DNA of 63,646 nucleotides, the filler included, from Globobulimina sp. (lineage: Eukaryota): NCBI GenBank assembly GCA_003354225.1. It is 37 parts of 37 records of this genome, joined end to end, with 100 filler letters (N's around TTAATTAATTAA, not from the genome) between each part and the next. Parts side by side here need not be neighbours in the genome. Positions count along the whole stretch, not along the records: positions 12,069 to 13,692 come from PIVH01013972.1; 36 more parts are not named here. One strand, written 5' to 3'. The position numbers and the translations under genes were made by a program. Below are positions 11,969-55,041 of the stretch, in pieces; within the stretch, counting starts at the first letter, position 1; every line of letters starts with the position of its first letter. Under the pieces are notes generated by a model, which ran no database searches, was not told where the DNA came from, and saw only the letters and a list, made by a program, of their open reading frames with translations.

Positions 11969-12266
11969 NNNNNNNNNNNNNNNNNNNNNNNNNNNNNNNN
12001 NNNNNNNNNNNNTTAATTAATTAANNNNNNNNNNNNNNNNNNNNNNNNNNNNNNNNNNNNNNNNNNNNTTTTGCCTTTTGCCCCTTTTTCGTTTTTCGCT
12101 TTCTCGGAAGAGAGCCAATTGGTTGTAACCTTTTGCTGACATCAGGTTGAGATTGGGTTTGAATAATCGAGTGCGCAACGTGAGTGTGTGTGTGTGTTGT
12201 GGCTATTGATCAAAAACCTAACTCAACTTGAAAAGCAAAAATAAACTTGCTTGATTATTTAATACA

Positions 12267-13361
12267 ATGTCATCAACAGAGCAAATAAATGCAAAAAAAG
12301 AATTAATTTATAGAACATTATTAGAATTACAAGCAATGAAAATAAAAATCAATGATTATTTGGATGAAGTAAATAAAAAATTTGAAAATGAGTCAAAAGA
12401 TGAGGAGAAAAAGCAACAAAATATTAAACAAAATAAAATAACGAAAATATCATTATTAGTGAATGTTGATACGAATAAAGATAATAAAGCGTTGCCATCG
12501 TGGTGTGATAAAGGACATGACTTAAAGTGTAGTCATAACATAAAATGGAATAAGGATCAATGTGATGGATGCAGTTCAAACAAAGGAGACGTTTTTATAT
12601 GTTTACTATGCTCAAATTATGATAAAGTATTTAATTCAGATAAATTTGTTCAAACAAACTCAAAATATTTATGGTGTTCAAAATGTGCCAATAAAACCAA
12701 TCCAAAAAATGTCAAAACAGAGATTTTCCGAAATAATGCAATAAGAAAAAGAGTGATCCATTCAACACAAATCAGCATTGATTTATTAACGGGATTACAA
12801 AATAAAAAATCATTAAATTATTTATTAAATGAAATCTCAATTAACAGCAATAAAGATCGTTATTCATTGTATTTATTCAACATCGATGGGTTTAACTCAT
12901 TGAAGTTTTTAAATGAAAGTTTATTGTCTGATGATAAAATATTAAAAGACATTGGTAAAACTTTAAATAATTTTGAACAAAAAACAGAAACTTATTTTTG
13001 TGATAAAAAACTAGGAATTAAACGTTGTTGGTGTTTCCGTCTCGGCTGTGATGAATTCGCCGTTGTGACTCTGGCAACGAGCTGTTTAATATAGAAACAA
13101 GAACCATTTTATTTGTTATTCAACCAAGAAATCCAAAAATTGGCCATTACAATATCCGTTGGGATGTGTTGTATGGGACTTGGTTTTGCGTATTCTTCTC
13201 AAAATATCAATGCAGCACAAGATTGGTTGTTATTTGCAGATAACGCATTGGATGAAGCTAAAAATTTTAAGTCAGGGAAAAATGGATTGCGAATTTATGA
13301 TAATAAACAAAAGAAAAATGTTAAAGGATTTACTGATTATCTTGTTAGTGATGGGTGGTAA
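12267..13361 (+). CDS. Coiled-coil + ZZ-like Zn finger + GGDEF-family domain protein, with an in-frame TAG at 13092-13094
   Basis: DLLTGLQNKK, LYLFNIDGF, DKILKDIG, FRLGCDEFAV, then in the same frame after TAG: ITISVGM, ADNALDEAK..GKN. N-terminal WCDKGHDL..CDGC..CLLC..CSKC. Confidence 0.8.
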
Positions 13362-13792
13362 TATACAAAGTTCGATCAAGTGTTATATGCATTTTTCTGT
13401 GTTGTGAGTGTGCGTACTGAAAGTTTTTAAATTTGAAAAATTCCAGTAACAAAAACAACATTGATTTCTTAGTATTTGAAGTCACTCTCAAATCTCATTC
13501 TGATAAACTCAATCATGCAGTTACAATTATTAATGGTATTTGCAAGTATATGTATGCATATATCGATGAGTGCGACTTATATCGATTCCGAATGGTGGGG
13601 AAAACAATTTAAAAATCGCATATCCGATTCCAAATTAAAATATCAAACAACTGTTACATTTTGTAACAATACAATTGGATCGTTAATTATTCNNNNNNNN
13701 NNNNNNNNNNNNNNNNNNNNNNNNNNNNNNNNNNNNTTAATTAATTAANNNNNNNNNNNNNNNNNNNNNNNNNNNNNNNNNNNNNNNNNNNN

Positions 13793-14462
13793 TTTCCATC
13801 ATTTTCTGAAAATATTTGAGTGCTAAGGAGGTTAACTCGGATACTTTTTGAATTGTATTCGTTTCAAATTTGTCTTTAAGCATTAAAATATCGGACAAAG
13901 CTTCGCCAAAATCATTGATTTCAAACTTTTGCGAGTCGTGGATGGAAGTCATAAATTTCTCGGCAAAGCCTTTAATTTCTTCTCGGATTAATCCAATTTT
14001 ATTCCCAGACGCGCTTAAAATGGAGGTTAGTTCATTGAAATTGGATTGATATCCATCGTTTTTATTTTTTGTGATTAATTTAATATTTAATTTATTATTA
14101 TTGTTGTTGTTGTTATTCCGATTACTAACTAATTGTTGCAATGTCTGTGAGGTTTTGGATCCGGCACAAATATAAATATCTCGATGCGTGATAATAATAA
14201 TTGTGGATAATAATTCATAGCCAAATAACCAGATATGTATAGAATTATTTCTTTTATAACCGGCATCGTCCGATTTGCCACATAGTATTACAATGGAGTT
14301 TGCGGCATGCCATCCGGGATAGGGATTTATCGTACTTTGTTTTGTTTTCTTTCGGCAAAATTCTAAATGACGTTGCCAATGTCCATGTAATATTCCTAAT
14401 CTCTGCCAAAATCGATCTACGTTGATTTCGTAAGGCGAGCTTGTCTGTTGCGCTGAAGACAT
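13793..14462 (-). CDS. SPT16: FACT complex subunit Spt16, N-terminal domain, 3' partial
   Basis: INVDRFWQRL, YKRNNSIHIWLFGYEL, LSDILMLKDKFE. Confidence 0.88.
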
Positions 14463-18964: not shown

Positions 18965-19960
18965 TTTTAGTGGGCGATTTTGATGGATTGGGGGTCTCCT
19001 CAGGTTTTGTGGGGCTGCGTGTAGGCAATGTGGTAGGTGCAGGCGTGGGTGATTTAGTTGGCGATGAGGTAATGTCAGTGGGGGTTGGTGTAGGTATTGA
19101 TGTTGGTGCCGGTGTAGGGGATGTGGATGGGATGTAAGTAGGTGAAGGTGTAGGAAATAGAGTGGGTGATGGAGTGGGTGAAGGTGTAGGAGATGGAGTG
19201 GGCGAATCTGTAGGAAATACCACAATACCTATACAGCCATAGGATTCTGCACAGCCACCTGGATCTTCCTGTATATATAATATATGTTTTTTATACGCAA
19301 AATCGCAAAAGTCTGTGCTATATGTACCTGTATGCAATTGCTTTCGCCTTCGTAACAGTTTAGTTCATTGATGTAAGTTTCTACACATAACAGGCCGCAG
19401 GGAAGTGTACAACCGCAACATGCATAGGCATTGTCACAGTGATGTGTGCATGTTCCGATCGTATAGCAATCTAAACTGACACCAATACATGTATAGTAAC
19501 CACCATTATCGACGCAATTGATGTCGCAAGTTGATATCCCGTCATTGTGACATGCCATACGGACATTATCAGTGTAGGAGCCTTGTGATGTTAAGGCTGC
19601 GGAGATCTTATCATTTGGATTGTTGCCATAGACTTCAACGGTTAAATAGTCGCATGAATCGTATCCATCGCAGAGGATAGTTATATCTCTATATGATACG
19701 ACGTGTGTATTTGCACAACTTGATTGTCCATAACAATTTATATTGCATGTACCATGTAAATAATCGTCGGTACATGTAATGGTGCTTCCAGCACATGAAT
19801 TGGCTGCATTGCAATTAAAATAGCATGCTGATGATGAGGTAGAACATGTCAATTGCTGATTTGAACATGATGATCCTGAGTTACAGTCCCGAGTATAGGT
19901 TGTATATAGTTCTGGGAATATACAGATCCAATATAGTAATTTTACAAGCTCCGCTGCCAT
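18965..19960 (-). CDS. Secreted Cys-rich protein with PT/SPT mucin-like stalk, intron 19327..19269, 3' partial
   Basis: Hydrophobic N-terminus, repeated C-x-G-x-x-S-C units, then (PTPS)n. Phase-0 intron gives CIQ|EDPGG. Confidence 0.75.
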
Positions 19961-20688
19961 TGATTTTATTCAAAAAAAAACCCTACTACGTTTTTGACGA
20001 TCCACAAACACCCAAAAAAATAATATAATGGCGGAACCTAAGACAGCACCTGAAGCCGAAATTAAAAGTAATTGCATTATCATCGAGATTCGGGACTTCT
20101 TTAAACACCACAGAAACCAGATGGCATTAAGGCGCATATAAATTACAACAAGAGTATGACGCAGAGGAAAAATATGGTAAAGAGTATAGATTTTCAGAAC
20201 AAAAACCAACAGTTTAATACCATCGATTTTATTTTCGTTACAAATGAAGAAATTTAATGTCATAATGAAGAAATTTAATGGTAAGATCATAGTAAAATTT
20301 GATGAAGTTTGGTTTGCATCTGAAATGTATACAACTATACAAAACGCCAACAAGATAAAGGTATACAGGGTGGATAGCATTGTTAAACTGAATGAACGAT
20401 GATACTGAATTAGTGACTTTGCTTTCGATTCAACGATATATTCCACAAACCGTTTCTGGATCTGAAAAGCGTTTCTCAGATAATTGAATAAAATGTATAC
20501 AACTTATCGACCAGGGGGGGGGTTATCTTTTGGAATATATCGTTCAGTTAAATGCACGAATTCTATACACTAAGAACAATTCTTCAAANNNNNNNNNNNN
20601 NNNNNNNNNNNNNNNNNNNNNNNNNNNNNNNNTTAATTAATTAANNNNNNNNNNNNNNNNNNNNNNNNNNNNNNNNNNNNNNNNNNNN

Positions 20689-36315: not shown

Positions 36316-36376
36316 TAACTTGTGTAGGCTCACAATAACTCGATTCAGTTTTGAACCATCAAATCCCGACAATGCT

Positions 36377-37820
36377 ATGCCAGATCAAAGTAGATGGTCA
36401 TGCAAGGAATGTACATTTGAAAACGATTGCAATGCCATTGAATGCAAAATCTGTCAAACTGACCGCTGCCAAAAAAGAGTACTTGATCAATCACATAATA
36501 ATAATATTCGCCAACCATCACCAAAAAAACGTAAAATAAATCAAACCAAAACTGTTCAACAAAATGAAATGGATATTGATGAAAACACAAACAATAACAA
36601 TCATGACATGGAACAATTATATTTCCCATCAAACCACAACAATGACGAAAAACGAGCAGATCCGACATTGGATTCAATGGATAAGTTTGGAGCAGCAAAG
36701 CCAAGCATTAATCGTATCAAAAAAGAAGAATATCCATATGAATGGGACAATAATTCCGTGATTAAACAAGAAGAAGAAATGAATGATAGTATAAACTACA
36801 TGTTTGATACTGATTTTTCATCTCATTTGACAGATGATATGTATTTATATTATAGTGGCCAAGATATGGATGCATTGGATTGGAGTGCCTCGGAATATGA
36901 ACAGGATAAGTTATGGGAATTAGAAAAGCATTTCTTTGAATGGAAGAATGCATATCGCGGCTGTCTAGTACTGATACAAAATGTATATAAATATGAATCT
37001 TATGAGGACGATGCCTTTATTGTGTCCATGGTACTCGGCGTTCAAACCTTTCGTCGCAAATTGGGTACTTTACTAAAAGTGTTGTTGCCAGAATTTAAGT
37101 TAGATTCTTATTTGCGAAGATTAGGTAAGATCCACCTTTGTTGACTACACATTCATTGAAGCAACAAACATAAAAACATTTTGCGTGTACAGTTGAAGTG
37201 GGTTTGATGGTGGCGGTGATATCGCAAACACAGACATCGACGACAATGGACAGAAAGACTCAGAAAACACTGCGTCGCGAATTAACCGGCATATACAGCA
37301 AAGGCACCTTGTTTTTCCCACACATTACTTCATTAACTTTGGATAACTGTATCTCGCAAACTTATCTCGACGATGAAACTCCAGAAAGTCGGTATATTTT
37401 ATCCTTTCATGAGGTACCACTGGACGCCGCATTTGAAATGGCGAAGAATATCCAATTTAATATAATTTTATGCGACCTATACTCCGGATATTTATATTAC
37501 GATCAATTCGAAGATACGTTTCTGAGACCGAAATTTTTGACCATTTTAAATCATTTTAACATTGTTGAGATTCTGTTGCCCAACAAAGAGATATCAAACA
37601 ATACACTGTGTTTATTGAAGAATAGATACAGCAAACTGGGAAATAGAAGGTCTGTCCGCTGGGCACCATATCAACTGTCACAGTTTGGATATTCGCAATG
37701 TAACACATTGCTGATCGATGCTTATAGCGAAGATAATGGCGAATGGATAGCTTTTATTTTAGAAACATGGCATCCATCCATCATAATATCGTTTTGTATG
37801 TTGGTGGATTATTTGCGGAA
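36377..37820 (+). CDS. MutS homologue (MSH3-like) with N-terminal RanBP2-type zinc finger, intron 37125..37192, 3' partial
   Basis: WSCKECTFENDCNAIECKICQT finger. MutS domain I: LVLIQNVYKYESYEDDA, YLRRL|VEVGLMVAVISQT, RRELTGIYSKGT. Connector: YDQFEDTFLR..VEILL. Confidence 0.8.
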
Positions 37821-38764
37821 NNNNNNNNNNNNNNNNNNNNNNNNNNNNNNNNNNNNNNNNNNNNTTAATTAATTAANNNNNNNNNNNNNNNNNNNNNNNN
37901 NNNNNNNNNNNNNNNNNNNNTCCAAATGCATTGCGATAATCACCATAAGCACGTACCATCACCTTTGCTGGTAACGGTTTTCCCATTGTTTGAGATTGTA
38001 ATCCATCGATGAGCAATTTTGAATGTGTCTACACTTTTCGTATAATAACCGCCCGTTCCTCCAGATTTTTGGGGTAATGAAAATTATTCAAACCAATCAA
38101 ATAAGATATAATTATCAATTTTCACTCTTAGGACAAAAATTAATGGGTATACAACCTTGGTAACAATTTGTTATTATTGCTCTGATGTTAATCTATATTT
38201 AGAGCTTTTAGCAGCACACTTTTTTCTGTGACATGAACAAAAATTACAGTCATTGATCACCAATTCTGCATCAGATTCAATTCCACAAAACAAAAAAGGC
38301 AAAACCCAAACGTTTGCAACTTTGTACAAACAGAACACGCCTAATTATAATCAACAATTTCCTAAATCAATACCATATTTAGATAAGTTTCGTGTGTTCG
38401 ATAGAGAATCCCTCGAAAAAATTTGTCTAAAACGATAAATCAAGCAAAGTACAGACAGATAACAATTTATCTGAATAACACTGAGATGGTTTAACCCATA
38501 CAATAAGAATGTAGTAATACAGATCACAGAGTTGGGGAGGACACAGCCGAAGCTGCAGACACACGCTCTATCAAATATTAATTAATTGAGCTACTGAGTC
38601 TTGTATATTTCTTGTGCATAACATAATTATTGATGCGCTATATATGTTGCTATCGAATGGCACACAAATATTTATGGTATGCATATGCCGGGCCACTGCT
38701 ACATTAAATTCTTTGAAATCAAATCAAATCAAATCAAAATGTAATACATATATTATTTGCAATT

Positions 38765-43851: not shown

Positions 43852-44709
43852 GATGTGAATGATTTAAATCATCAAATTCATAATATTGGCATTGTAATGT
43901 CTGAGTTTGGAGATTGGACTCATCAGACAACAGGTTTTGTTTTTGCACATTCATCATTTTCGGCAGAATTATATGTGTTAACTGAGGCACAAGCTGTGAT
44001 TTCATGGAATGGCGAAACTAAAGAATTTGAACAGGCTGACAACGTTTCCTTTCATTTGAGAAAAAATGTGGATATAAATAATTCAGAGTATATATCAAAT
44101 TATTCAGCAGTGAGTTGGGAAGTGCATCCAAAATATATTCAACACAAATCAAAGTATTATAATATCGCAATTATAAAAATTATTGATCCTAAAAATGAAT
44201 TATGGAATGTTAAACCTTTGCAATTATGTGCATCCACAAAGAATTATGATTCATATAATAGAGCAAAAGTATTTGGCTTTGCAGGTGTTTGGAATGAAGA
44301 ACTGTTTGGAATGAAAGGTGCGGTCAACTGCTTGGATGGGAAAATAATAAGATATGAAAATATTGTATGTCGTGGAAGAGGAGGACCAGTTTTTTGTTAT
44401 GGTGAAAGAAAAAATAATGATGACAAACAAGAACAGAAAATGAACGATGAGTGCACAAAAGCATTGAAATTATTGAATTTAGGGTTGGATGTTGACTCTG
44501 TGATCAATGAGCTGAATAATCAAAAGATTGAAAAAAAGAAATGGACGTTTTTCTCCAGAAAGAGTTCAAATGTTCAAGATATTTATAATAAAATATACAA
44601 AGAAGGTGCGTATAGACCATCAAGTATAGACCAATGGCTTTATAATGCCGTAGATGCAGATTATTGTGATATATTTAATTGTTTTGGTGACGAAGTGATG
44701 GGAATCAGT
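43852..44709 (+). CDS. Degenerate trypsin-like protease homologue, 3' partial
   Basis: TGFV, VLTEAQAV (His lost), VHPKY..NIAIIKI (Asp lost), GRGGPV. Confidence 0.6.
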
Positions 44710-45021
44710 NNNNNNNNNNNNNNNNNNNNNNNNNNNNNNNNNNNNNNNNNNNNTTAATTAATTAANNNNNNNNNNNNNNNNNNNNNNNNNNNNNNNNNNN
44801 NNNNNNNNNCTTGACGACATGCCGTCCTGCCCGCAAACTTCGCCGTGCTGTCCACAGAGACATTCTGCACTTTCTTGCGCGAGTTCTCGCCACGCCTGCT
44901 ATGAAATACCGCTGACGTGCAGGCGCAAGACTCGTTGGACCAATTCAGCCGTCGTATGAAATGAAATGTAGGCTATGTGCCAGCGCAAGATTCGTTGGAC
45001 CAGTTCAGTGGACCACTACAA

Positions 45022-53846: not shown

Positions 53847-55041
53847 TTATGTACGCATAGAATATAATTCATTCATAGCCGATTCCATATTCCCATTATG
53901 TTTAATCAACGCATTTTCACATTGTTTAGCATTATTAAACCCGATCATTTTTAAATGCTTTAATTCTTTTTCAAACACTGACGCTGAAGACCCTCGACTT
54001 TGACTTATCAACATATTCCAATCAATGTTATTATCATTGAATGCGGATTCCATTAAACTTTCAAACAAAATGCAGTCACTTTGCGTCAACACACCAAACA
54101 TAACACAAACAATCGAGTTTATCAATAACTTCTCCTCTTCTTTCTTTTGAACATTATCCTTTTTTTTATTATTATTTTTAATCGCATTGTTTAACGCGTC
54201 ATCATCCTCAAAATCATCAATCAATATCACCTCATCATTATCATCCAGCTTATTTTCGTCCTTATTGGCTTGTATATATTTAACCAAGTCCTCGCCAGCT
54301 TCGCTACATATTTGCATAATTAATTTGAACCCAAAATCGTACTGATTCACCACATACAAACTCACGCACAATTCCAGTAACATTGACATTTTCTTTGCTA
54401 AATATTCTGCGTTTTTGAAGCCATTCGTCGACAATAAAGTGAGTGTTATGGATATTTTGTTGCTGCGCGGCATGGCAAATGGCTGTACAATTTTGCTCAT
54501 AATGTCATTGCTGTCGTTATTGACATACTTTTTCTTGGTCACAATAAAAATGCGCGTATTGCCATGCAACGGGATGCGTTTTTCATTGATGATCATATGA
54601 TTTTTATTTTCATTCAAATGATAGTTTATCGATGTCGCGTAATATGAGATTTGACCACCAAATTGTTTGATGTCGGCTTCTTTTAAAATGCCAAAACCAC
54701 CGCAACTGCTGATGCCCGCAAACCAATTAAATAAACGATCGCTATCATTCATGCGCGATATGTCCGACAGGCAGCTCTGGTTTGCATTAAATATTTTGTA
54801 TGGACGACCCAACGAATATGCAAACACTTTCAAGCTCTCAATGCGGCCCATTCCAATGTTGCCGTACACATTGCTGATGTTATGGTTTTCGATGGTTGTC
54901 TGCAATAAGGAGGGGAACAACGTGTCGGTGTTCACCGTCCGAGTGTATATAAACGATTCTATATCACCATAAAACTCATAGCCATAATGATAGATTTTAC
55001 GGTTGCATTTTATGTACAGTTTTTTGAATATGTTGTATTGA
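53847..55041 (-). CDS. Degenerate dynein heavy chain AAA1-like domain fused to a C-terminal UBA domain, 5' partial
   Basis: YGYEFYG, GMGRIESLK..LGR, FAGISSCGGFG, NGFKNAEYLAKK, QYDFG. Ends FEKELKHLKMIGFNNAKQCENALIKHNGNMESAMNELY then a stop. Confidence 0.75.

Follow-up and report, generated by a model that had tools for sequence, protein, structure and literature searches.

Signaling through GGDEF domains is treated as a bacterial trait, and the closest described systems to the gene considered here are bacterial diguanylate cyclases (DGCs) such as PleD, WspR, SiaD, and the zinc-regulated DgcZ (YdeH) of Escherichia coli, together with the degenerate, non-catalytic GGDEF domains of PelD, FimX, LapD, and the GTP-sensing domain of PdeA/CC3396. 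To our knowledge, DgcA of Dictyostelium is the one characterized eukaryotic DGC, reportedly identified as such by Chen and Schaap in 2012. One passage of a 2010 survey describes the GGDEF domain as "entirely absent in eukaryotes" (PMC2904730), and a passage of a 2025 review states that cyclic di- and oligonucleotides have only occasionally been introduced in eukaryotes, with Chen and Schaap 2012 among the works it cites (PMC13375341). The present gene encodes a fusion of a Cys/His-rich finger with a GGDEF domain and lies in a 63,646-base stretch of DNA, here called the window, drawn from an assembly of the foraminiferan Globobulimina sp. (GCA_003354225.1). On balance, it is probably an intact nuclear gene of foraminiferal type whose product is a conserved non-catalytic or strongly impaired paralog within a lineage-specific, much-duplicated GGDEF family.

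The protein of 364 residues is predicted to consist of an N-terminal helical hairpin, a Cys/His module with eight ligands (sufficient for two zinc ions), a connecting helix, and the GGDEF domain (Table 1). With PleD, WspR, DgcZ, and SiaD it shares the fold and the order of the motifs (DxLTGLxN, DxD...FK..N, GH..D, RxGGDEF, SxG, and AK..GxN), as well as a helix that runs into the domain, a feature of DGCs regulated through a stalk or coiled coil. It differs from them in reading NID and GCDEF and lacking the GH pair, in belonging to a foraminiferal clade that is devoid of the RxxD motif throughout, and in its input domain, a Cys/His module that a pattern scan did not find in prokaryote genomes; moreover, some members of the family are fused to PH, SPRY, ankyrin, and E2 modules instead of the PAS, REC, and EAL domains of bacteria. 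DgcA is likewise a GGDEF protein encoded by a eukaryote and provides a precedent for cyclic di-GMP (c-di-GMP) as a eukaryotic signal, whereas the foraminiferal family is present in many copies (at least 10 paralog clusters in Bolivina) and carries an N-terminal module of its own, a comparison that concerns copy number and architecture rather than sequence.

Table 1. Features of the zinc-finger-GGDEF gene and its contig (positions along the window; residues numbered in the 364-residue translation).
Feature	Position	Strand	Remarks
Gene-bearing contig	12069..13692		1624 bp; N44-TTAATTAATTAA-N44 linker at either side
Zinc-finger-GGDEF coding sequence	12267..13361	+	Intronless, 364 codons + TAA; from translation
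N-terminal helical hairpin (residues 2-42)	12270..12392	+	AlphaFold2 helices 2-23 and 28-42
ISLLV motif and Cys/His module	12447..12686	+	Ligands C80, H84, C99, C102, C112, C115, C137, C140
Long stalk-like helix into GGDEF (residues 138-164)	12678..12758	+	AlphaFold2: 138-162 in full-length model, 138-164 in N-terminal model
GGDEF domain	12777..13268	+	Pfam envelope, residues 171-334; PDB profile search; Foldseek
NID replacing DxD (N205)	12879..12887	+	D in 22/23 clade members and 95/97 others
Residue 220 (Gly of GH) = L			G in 17/23 clade members and 97/97 others
Residue 221 (His of GH) = S			H in 21/23 clade members and 96/97 others
GCDEF replacing GGDEF (C261)	13044..13058	+	Second Gly: G in 21/23 clade members and 97/97 others
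In-frame TAG (codon 276)	13092..13094	+	Window only; TAT (Tyr) in read-derived contigs of 4/4 runs

The GGDEF domain is confirmed by Pfam, by a profile search of the PDB, and by its fold. In the translation, DLLTGLQN (from residue 172), NIDGF (205-209), RLGCDEF (258-264), ITISVG (294-299), and ADNALDEAKNFKSGKN follow one another downstream of a Cys/His-rich stretch at residues 80-140, so that every motif named in a first-pass annotation, which had reported all GGDEF landmarks in order, is recovered. The span that it had given is a single forward-strand frame, though it overlooked an in-frame TAG that splits the open reading frame (ORF), as written in the window, into parts of 275 and 82-88 codons, both in one frame, and that is absent from read-derived contigs. 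With the TAG read through (as X), the search with Pfam PF00990 that had been suggested as a check gives 28.9 bits (E 1.1e-6, profile positions 3-157 of 161) against a gathering score of 23.8; the two halves searched singly score 16.1 and 13.7 bits, both under that threshold. A profile of three sequences, the protein and two relatives, finds 23 distinct PDB sequences at E <= 0.01, the best being 9p6j_A (E 1.9e-8), and most of the matches are named as DGCs or GGDEF-domain proteins. The AlphaFold2 model, built on a 56-sequence alignment, has a mean predicted local distance difference test (pLDDT) score of 86.4 and a predicted template modeling score of 0.80, and Foldseek matches it to the GGDEF domains of WspR, PleD, SiaD, DgcR, DgcZ, and DosC (E from 5.8e-8, target-normalized TM-score <=0.77).

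The catalytic columns were compared in an alignment guided by a hidden Markov model, in which the window protein was set against 23 members of its clade and 97 other GGDEF domains. Column by column, this comparison bears out the degenerate site (GCDEF, NID, and no GH) described in the first-pass annotation, and the nucleotide-binding loop of the window protein is altered as well, having gained 3 residues after F209 and lost 2 others. The residues kept are D172, D207, K213, N216, D223, R258, G260, D262, E263, F264, G299, D325, and K332, which include the guanine-contacting Asn and Asp (N216 and D223), the acidic pair of the DEF sequence, and the phosphate-binding Lys (K332). We take the counterparts in PleD to be D327 for the first, metal-binding Asp of DxD, N335 and D344 for the guanine contacts, and K442 for the phosphate contact, with roles as assigned in the PleD and WspR literature. 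Nearly all members of the family, by comparison, retain DxD, GH, and RQGGDEF, the guanine-specifying Asp is present in 20 of the 23 clade members, and all 29 occurrences of G-x-[DE]-E-F among the relatives P0001-P0047 read GG. At the RxxD I-site, five residues upstream of the signature, the window protein reads IKRC, and the motif is found in 0 of 21 clade members as against 34 of 93 other domains. Since DxD, GH, and GGDEF are kept and RxxD is absent, most members of the family look like catalytically competent cyclases without product inhibition.

Within such a family, zinc-module-controlled and dimer-dependent synthesis of c-di-GMP from GTP would proceed without I-site feedback, and the window copy may bind nucleotide or pair with active paralogs, thereby modulating signaling instead of making the messenger. 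The active site of a GGDEF enzyme needs two protomers, each contributing one GTP, and pairing with active paralogs or sensing of nucleotide is therefore the simplest role to propose for it; we infer such a regulatory or heterodimeric function for the window copy, as we do zinc binding by the module and cyclase activity of the canonical paralogs. The first-pass annotation had offered two roles, receptor or inactive paralog, and it is the second that the motifs favor, as a canonical RxxD receptor site is absent. The relation to the bacterial degenerate domains is similar in part: the window protein, like them, keeps the fold, replaces signature residues, and stays conserved, and the GGDEF-EAL structure of LapD (3pjw) is among its Foldseek matches, whereas those domains work through an I-site or as allosteric partners to an EAL domain on their own chain, and the window protein has neither an I-site nor an EAL domain.

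It is rather unlikely, though the most serious of the alternatives, that the window protein is still an active DGC or another cyclic-dinucleotide cyclase, in which N205 and C261 are tolerated and the zinc module is regulatory. The retention of D207, K213, N216, D223, R258, G260, D262, E263, F264, and K332 and the purifying selection on the gene agree with activity, and some degenerate sites do work, the AGDEF enzyme VCA0965 of Vibrio cholerae being reported as active in one study (PMC3974145); against it stand the joint loss of three hallmarks, namely the first metal-binding Asp, the second Gly, and the GH pair, and the insertion and deletion in the nucleotide-binding loop. A receptor that would sense bacterial c-di-GMP, coming from prey or symbionts, through the degenerate domain is improbable. 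Foraminifera eat and host bacteria, and bacteria have c-di-GMP receptors built on degenerate GGDEF domains (PelD; also the I-sites of many DGCs), a parallel that is countered by the absence of the canonical RxxD from the window protein and its clade. An impaired or non-catalytic paralog thus remains the preferred reading, and the P0009 fragment, nearest to the window protein in a tree of N-terminal sequences, also reads NID, which hints that this state is older than the window species.

That the gene is intact and under purifying selection follows from public sequencing reads. The stretch is contained in eight public runs from four studies, and Logan contigs of four runs (X1, X3, X6, and X7), one per study, were aligned to it. 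All four carry T in place of the window's G at position 13094 (depth 4.08 in X1, 61.9 in X3, 8.05 in X6, and 12.7 in X7), so that codon 276 specifies Tyr; X1 is otherwise identical to the window, and the G is thus an assembly error or a minor or rare allele. No insertion, deletion, or joint is reported within the gene in the contigs of the four runs. Relative to the window, the 4 changes in X3 are all synonymous (0 non-synonymous), and the ratio of non-synonymous to synonymous substitution rates (dN/dS) is 0.151 for X6 (351 codons) and 0.142 for X7 (311 codons), the two being overlapping estimates of constraint. None of the differences listed for X3, X6, and X7 falls at N205 or C261. A chimeric junction between finger and GGDEF domain, which the first-pass annotation had named as grounds for abandoning its reading, was looked for and is excluded by single contigs of X3 (12296-13339) and X7 (12417-12890) that cross from the finger into the GGDEF domain, and transcripts of Bolivina share the architecture. 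Four-run coverage leaves out 12069-12123, and about 13440-13550 is uncovered in X3, X6, and X7; some high-depth contigs of X1, X6, and X7 that touch 18-24 nt of the stretch were taken as low-complexity chance matches.

A decaying pseudogene, marked by a nonsense codon and a degenerate catalytic site, is very improbable on this evidence. The TAG at 13092-94, the degenerate motif, and the absence of the exact 275-residue product from the protein collection would fit such a copy, and they are outweighed by the TAT in all four runs, the freedom from indels and frameshifts, the low dN/dS and the purely synonymous changes in X3, a model that is confident throughout the domain, and the NID of P0009 (grouped with the window protein at a branch support of 90), which suggests an older, retained state. 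The gene is thus read as intact and constrained.

Two other accounts of the stop codon were considered and rejected. An intron around it is not supported, the spacing from GCDEF to ITISVG being equal to that of the full-length relative P0002, the TAG aligning with an ordinary residue, and the reads showing no joint. Taking TAG as sense, under an alternative genetic code, would add more than 50 codons to the longest ORF of just 2 of the 37 contigs of the window, and the reads show TAT. The only contig besides that of the GGDEF gene whose longest ORF grows strongly when a stop is read as sense is the one at 18965-20588, where the minus-strand ORF goes from 246 codons to 335 with TAG as sense and to 424 with TGA as sense; the neighboring minus-strand ORFs there, 19229-19960 and 19970-20446, point to an intron, a frameshift, or some other assembly error.

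The only close relatives of the gene are foraminiferal transcriptome proteins and environmental records. A first homolog search yielded two proteins among 1524 candidates, both from EukProt Bolivina argentea, and searching 1.84 billion representatives with a profile produced 14,156 matches at E <= 1e-3, which take in the whole GGDEF world, and 16 at E <= 1e-30. Some 36 of the best 47 matches reach the N-terminal part of the profile (start <=140), ordinary GGDEF proteins, which cover only about positions 172-340 of the profile, start near E 1e-13, and the family is put at roughly 30-45 clusters. A third search, from a 34-sequence alignment, returned at least three family members, with bacterial PAS/EAL-GGDEF proteins at E 6.8e-19 or weaker among the matches listed. 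Of 12 members traced to their sources, 10 come from Bolivina argentea, 1 from Elphidium margaritaceum (MMETSP1385), and 1 from a Logan/ENA record, and a further member is a JGI record on a 2.3-kb contig. Foraminiferal transcripts of the same architecture are its nearest relatives (34-50% identity), and the window protein aligns over its full length with P0002, P0003, P0004, P0006, and P0007. These sequences are already public, some of them with a precomputed PF00990 label.

A phylogeny, as proposed in the first-pass annotation, places the gene within this family. The tree built from 121 full-length GGDEF domains (IQ-TREE quick, LG+G4, 172 columns) puts the window protein in a clade of 24 rows with a Shimodaira-Hasegawa-like approximate likelihood-ratio test (SH-aLRT) support of 99; the clade consists of 21 rows with the N-terminal module, the window included, and three short rows without a match to it (P0034, P0058, and P0080), and it stands apart from the 97 other GGDEF domains in a tree that is unrooted and names no donor. 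In a tree of the N-terminal 200-230 residues, the window protein groups with P0009 (SH-aLRT 90) and P0001 (96). Searches with Pfam of 10 long members show PH, GGDEF, and SPRY domains together in P0005, an E2 (UQ_con) domain with GGDEF in P0023, and ankyrin repeats with GGDEF in P0013 (above the curated cut-off) and P0015 (below it). A subclade formed by P0017, P0019, P0020, P0023, P0026, P0034, P0040, P0044, and P0047 carries a Lys/Glu/Asn-rich insertion of about 45-80 residues between the helix that follows GGDEF and the SxG strand, an unusual place in a GGDEF domain.

These relatives, the PH, SPRY, ankyrin, and E2 fusions, codon usage, and the scan of prokaryotes support a nuclear gene of a foraminifer or a close relative, in keeping with the earlier description of the gene as eukaryote-encoded. 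The relative synonymous codon usage of the gene correlates at 0.67 with that of the pooled ORFs for MFS, Spt16, kinase, and dynein proteins from the window, and those genes correlate with one another at 0.39-0.63. Peptide patterns of the family, two short ones in each scan and therefore prone to miss diverged relatives, returned 153 stretches from 185,579 prokaryotic species genomes with no relative of the N-terminal module, 594 stretches from JGI metagenomes with 0 relatives, and 27 stretches from viral contigs with 0 relatives. The sole relative in the prokaryote scan was the GGDEF part (residues 168-268) of an ordinary GGDEF protein of Macrococcoides goetzii. Contamination from a bacterium or virus, or a single recent transfer, as the overwhelmingly bacterial distribution of GGDEF and an intronless gene alone on a 1.6-kb contig might suggest, is hardly credible beside the foraminiferal transcripts of the same architecture, the eukaryotic fusions, the separate clade, the fitting codon usage, the failure of pattern scans to turn up a relative of the N-terminal module in prokaryote genomes or viral contigs, and the presence of the stretch in runs of four studies.

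Several points weigh against an impaired member of a resident foraminiferal family. The gene is alone on its contig and intronless, no clearly eukaryotic gene is physically linked to it, and no RNA run is among the public runs listed as containing it. The loss of activity in the window copy is read from its motifs, a reading that the active AGDEF enzyme of V. cholerae cautions against. X6 and X7 share most of their differences and do not provide independent estimates of constraint, and the pattern scans are weak negatives. At the level of the family, sources have been traced for 12 of about 45 clusters only, and transcriptome assembly can yield false fusions, so that single domain fusions need care.

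A wider proposal, plausible and put forward tentatively, is that foraminifera run a large cyclic-dinucleotide system of their own, with dozens of GGDEF proteins that would be mostly catalytically intact and without a product-inhibition site, a lineage-specific two-zinc finger as their driver, links to eukaryotic modules, and degenerate paralogs such as the window gene as regulators. The main value of the gene lies in this implication for the family, that foraminifera may make and use c-di-GMP. If this is true, they would be the second eukaryotic lineage known to make the messenger, after the Dictyostelia, and would have by far the largest repertoire; a duplicated and domain-shuffled family with canonical catalytic residues would mean that GGDEF signaling had been adopted and expanded by a major marine protist group, one that matters in sediment biogeochemistry and lives closely with bacteria. 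The questions raised are whether c-di-GMP serves as an endogenous eukaryotic messenger beyond the slime molds and what part a new zinc module plays as a cyclase input, and the canonical P0002 and the naturally degenerate window gene offer themselves as test proteins. The foraminiferal zinc-module-GGDEF family is apparently undescribed: no publication linking foraminifera or Reticulomyxa to GGDEF, diguanylate, or di-GMP was found in the full-text literature searched, which leaves most subscription journals outside. In a 2026 paper about archaeal GGDEF proteins, none of the retrieved passages concerns eukaryotic ones (PMC13725321), and the retrieved passages of the Physarum genome paper mention Reticulomyxa only for kinesins (PMC4758236).

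The N-terminal half of the protein holds the family-specific module. Its helical hairpin is followed by a low-confidence linker rich in Lys, Glu, and Asn (pLDDT <50 at residues 49-56), after which pLDDT is 92-96 across residues 81-150 (10-residue blocks). Across 22 family sequences, no substitution occurs at C80, G83, C99, C102, C112, C115, or C137, and conservation reaches at least 90% at H84 and C140; eight conserved ligands are enough for two zinc ions, and the module is predicted to bind that number. A separate model of residues 1-165 (pLDDT 80.7) found no Foldseek match at E <= 0.001, the best (E 2.4) being to generic small zinc-binding proteins only, VIA-align matched only the hairpin (residues 1-52, Z <=5.6), neither program listed a ZZ finger, and the ESM Atlas gave no usable match for the same residues. 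A homodimer prediction for two copies of the N-terminal 165 residues scored 0.02 and is uninformative either way.

Whether this module is related to the ZZ finger (PF00569) was considered at the level of profiles, the first-pass annotation having called it "ZZ-like." The Pfam ZZ profile has no match in the window protein at E <= 1 and matches 1 of the 22 family members (E 0.0036), and DUF5894 gives a weak match at residues 61-88 (21.6 bits against a cut-off of 25) and is likewise found in 1 of 22. A five-sequence profile of the module has 21 matches in the PDB at E <= 10, the best of them not significant (E 0.35), and most are to p300, CBP, p62/sequestosome-1, MIB1, and KCMF1, which we take to be ZZ-finger proteins, aligned on C-x2-C...C-x2-C-x-YD. 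This central spacing is shared with ZZ fingers, which carry a terminal His pair; in the present module such a pair is not evident, an upstream C-x3-H is present, and about 17 residues are inserted before the third CxxC. "ZZ-like" may therefore stand as a reasonable description of the core motif, faintly supported by these alignments, and the identity with ZZ fingers is not established by a best PDB E-value of 0.35 and a single Pfam match. The comparison with DgcZ, whose structures 3tvk and 4h54 are among the structure matches, is one of arrangement: both proteins join a zinc-type N-terminal domain, in which zinc binding is predicted in the present case, to a GGDEF domain, whereas DgcZ uses a helical CZB domain to which the Cys-rich finger has no detectable similarity.

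Two relatives carry the module in other arrangements. P0011 of Bolivina argentea (715 aa) has it at residues 2-185, followed by an acyltransferase domain (PF00698, E 1.6e-20) and no GGDEF domain, and the module may be a portable input domain, unless the P0011 transcript is a false fusion. P0016 of Elphidium margaritaceum (444 aa) has a tandem duplication of the leader together with the beginning of the finger, with QQQQLEPLSLLIDANAKWICPRGHTA repeated, upstream of a canonical RQGGDEF domain.

The window itself is composed of 37 unlinked contigs of 1621-1624 bp each, arranged in descending size and joined by linkers of the form N44-TTAATTAATTAA-N44; because they are unlinked, apparent neighbors in the window carry no linkage information. 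The contig at 12069-13692, on which the GGDEF gene is the sole gene, has a G+C content of 29.5%, and the remaining contigs range from 25.8 to 46.6%. The Pfam content of the other contigs is a eukaryotic set, with matches in 6 of 10 long ORFs to AAA_6 (dynein motor), the FACT-Spt16 N-lobe, protein kinase, Tudor-knot, EGF, and MFS. Of 10 other ORFs of the window compared for identical sequences, none occurs in the protein collection. Two of these serve as eukaryotic markers of the assembly, a dynein heavy chain fragment at 53850-54935 (minus strand; AAA_6, E 7.4e-25) and a fragment of the FACT subunit Spt16 at 13793-14462 (minus strand; N-lobe, E 2e-28). Two pairs of plus-strand ORFs, each pair on one contig (43142-43780 with 43855-44757, and 36320-37144 with 37198-37872), resemble exons around short introns, in contrast to the intronless GGDEF gene. 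A (GT)n microsatellite, gtgagtgtgtgtgtgtgttgtgg, lies at 12180-12200, about 70 bp 5' of the start codon of that gene.

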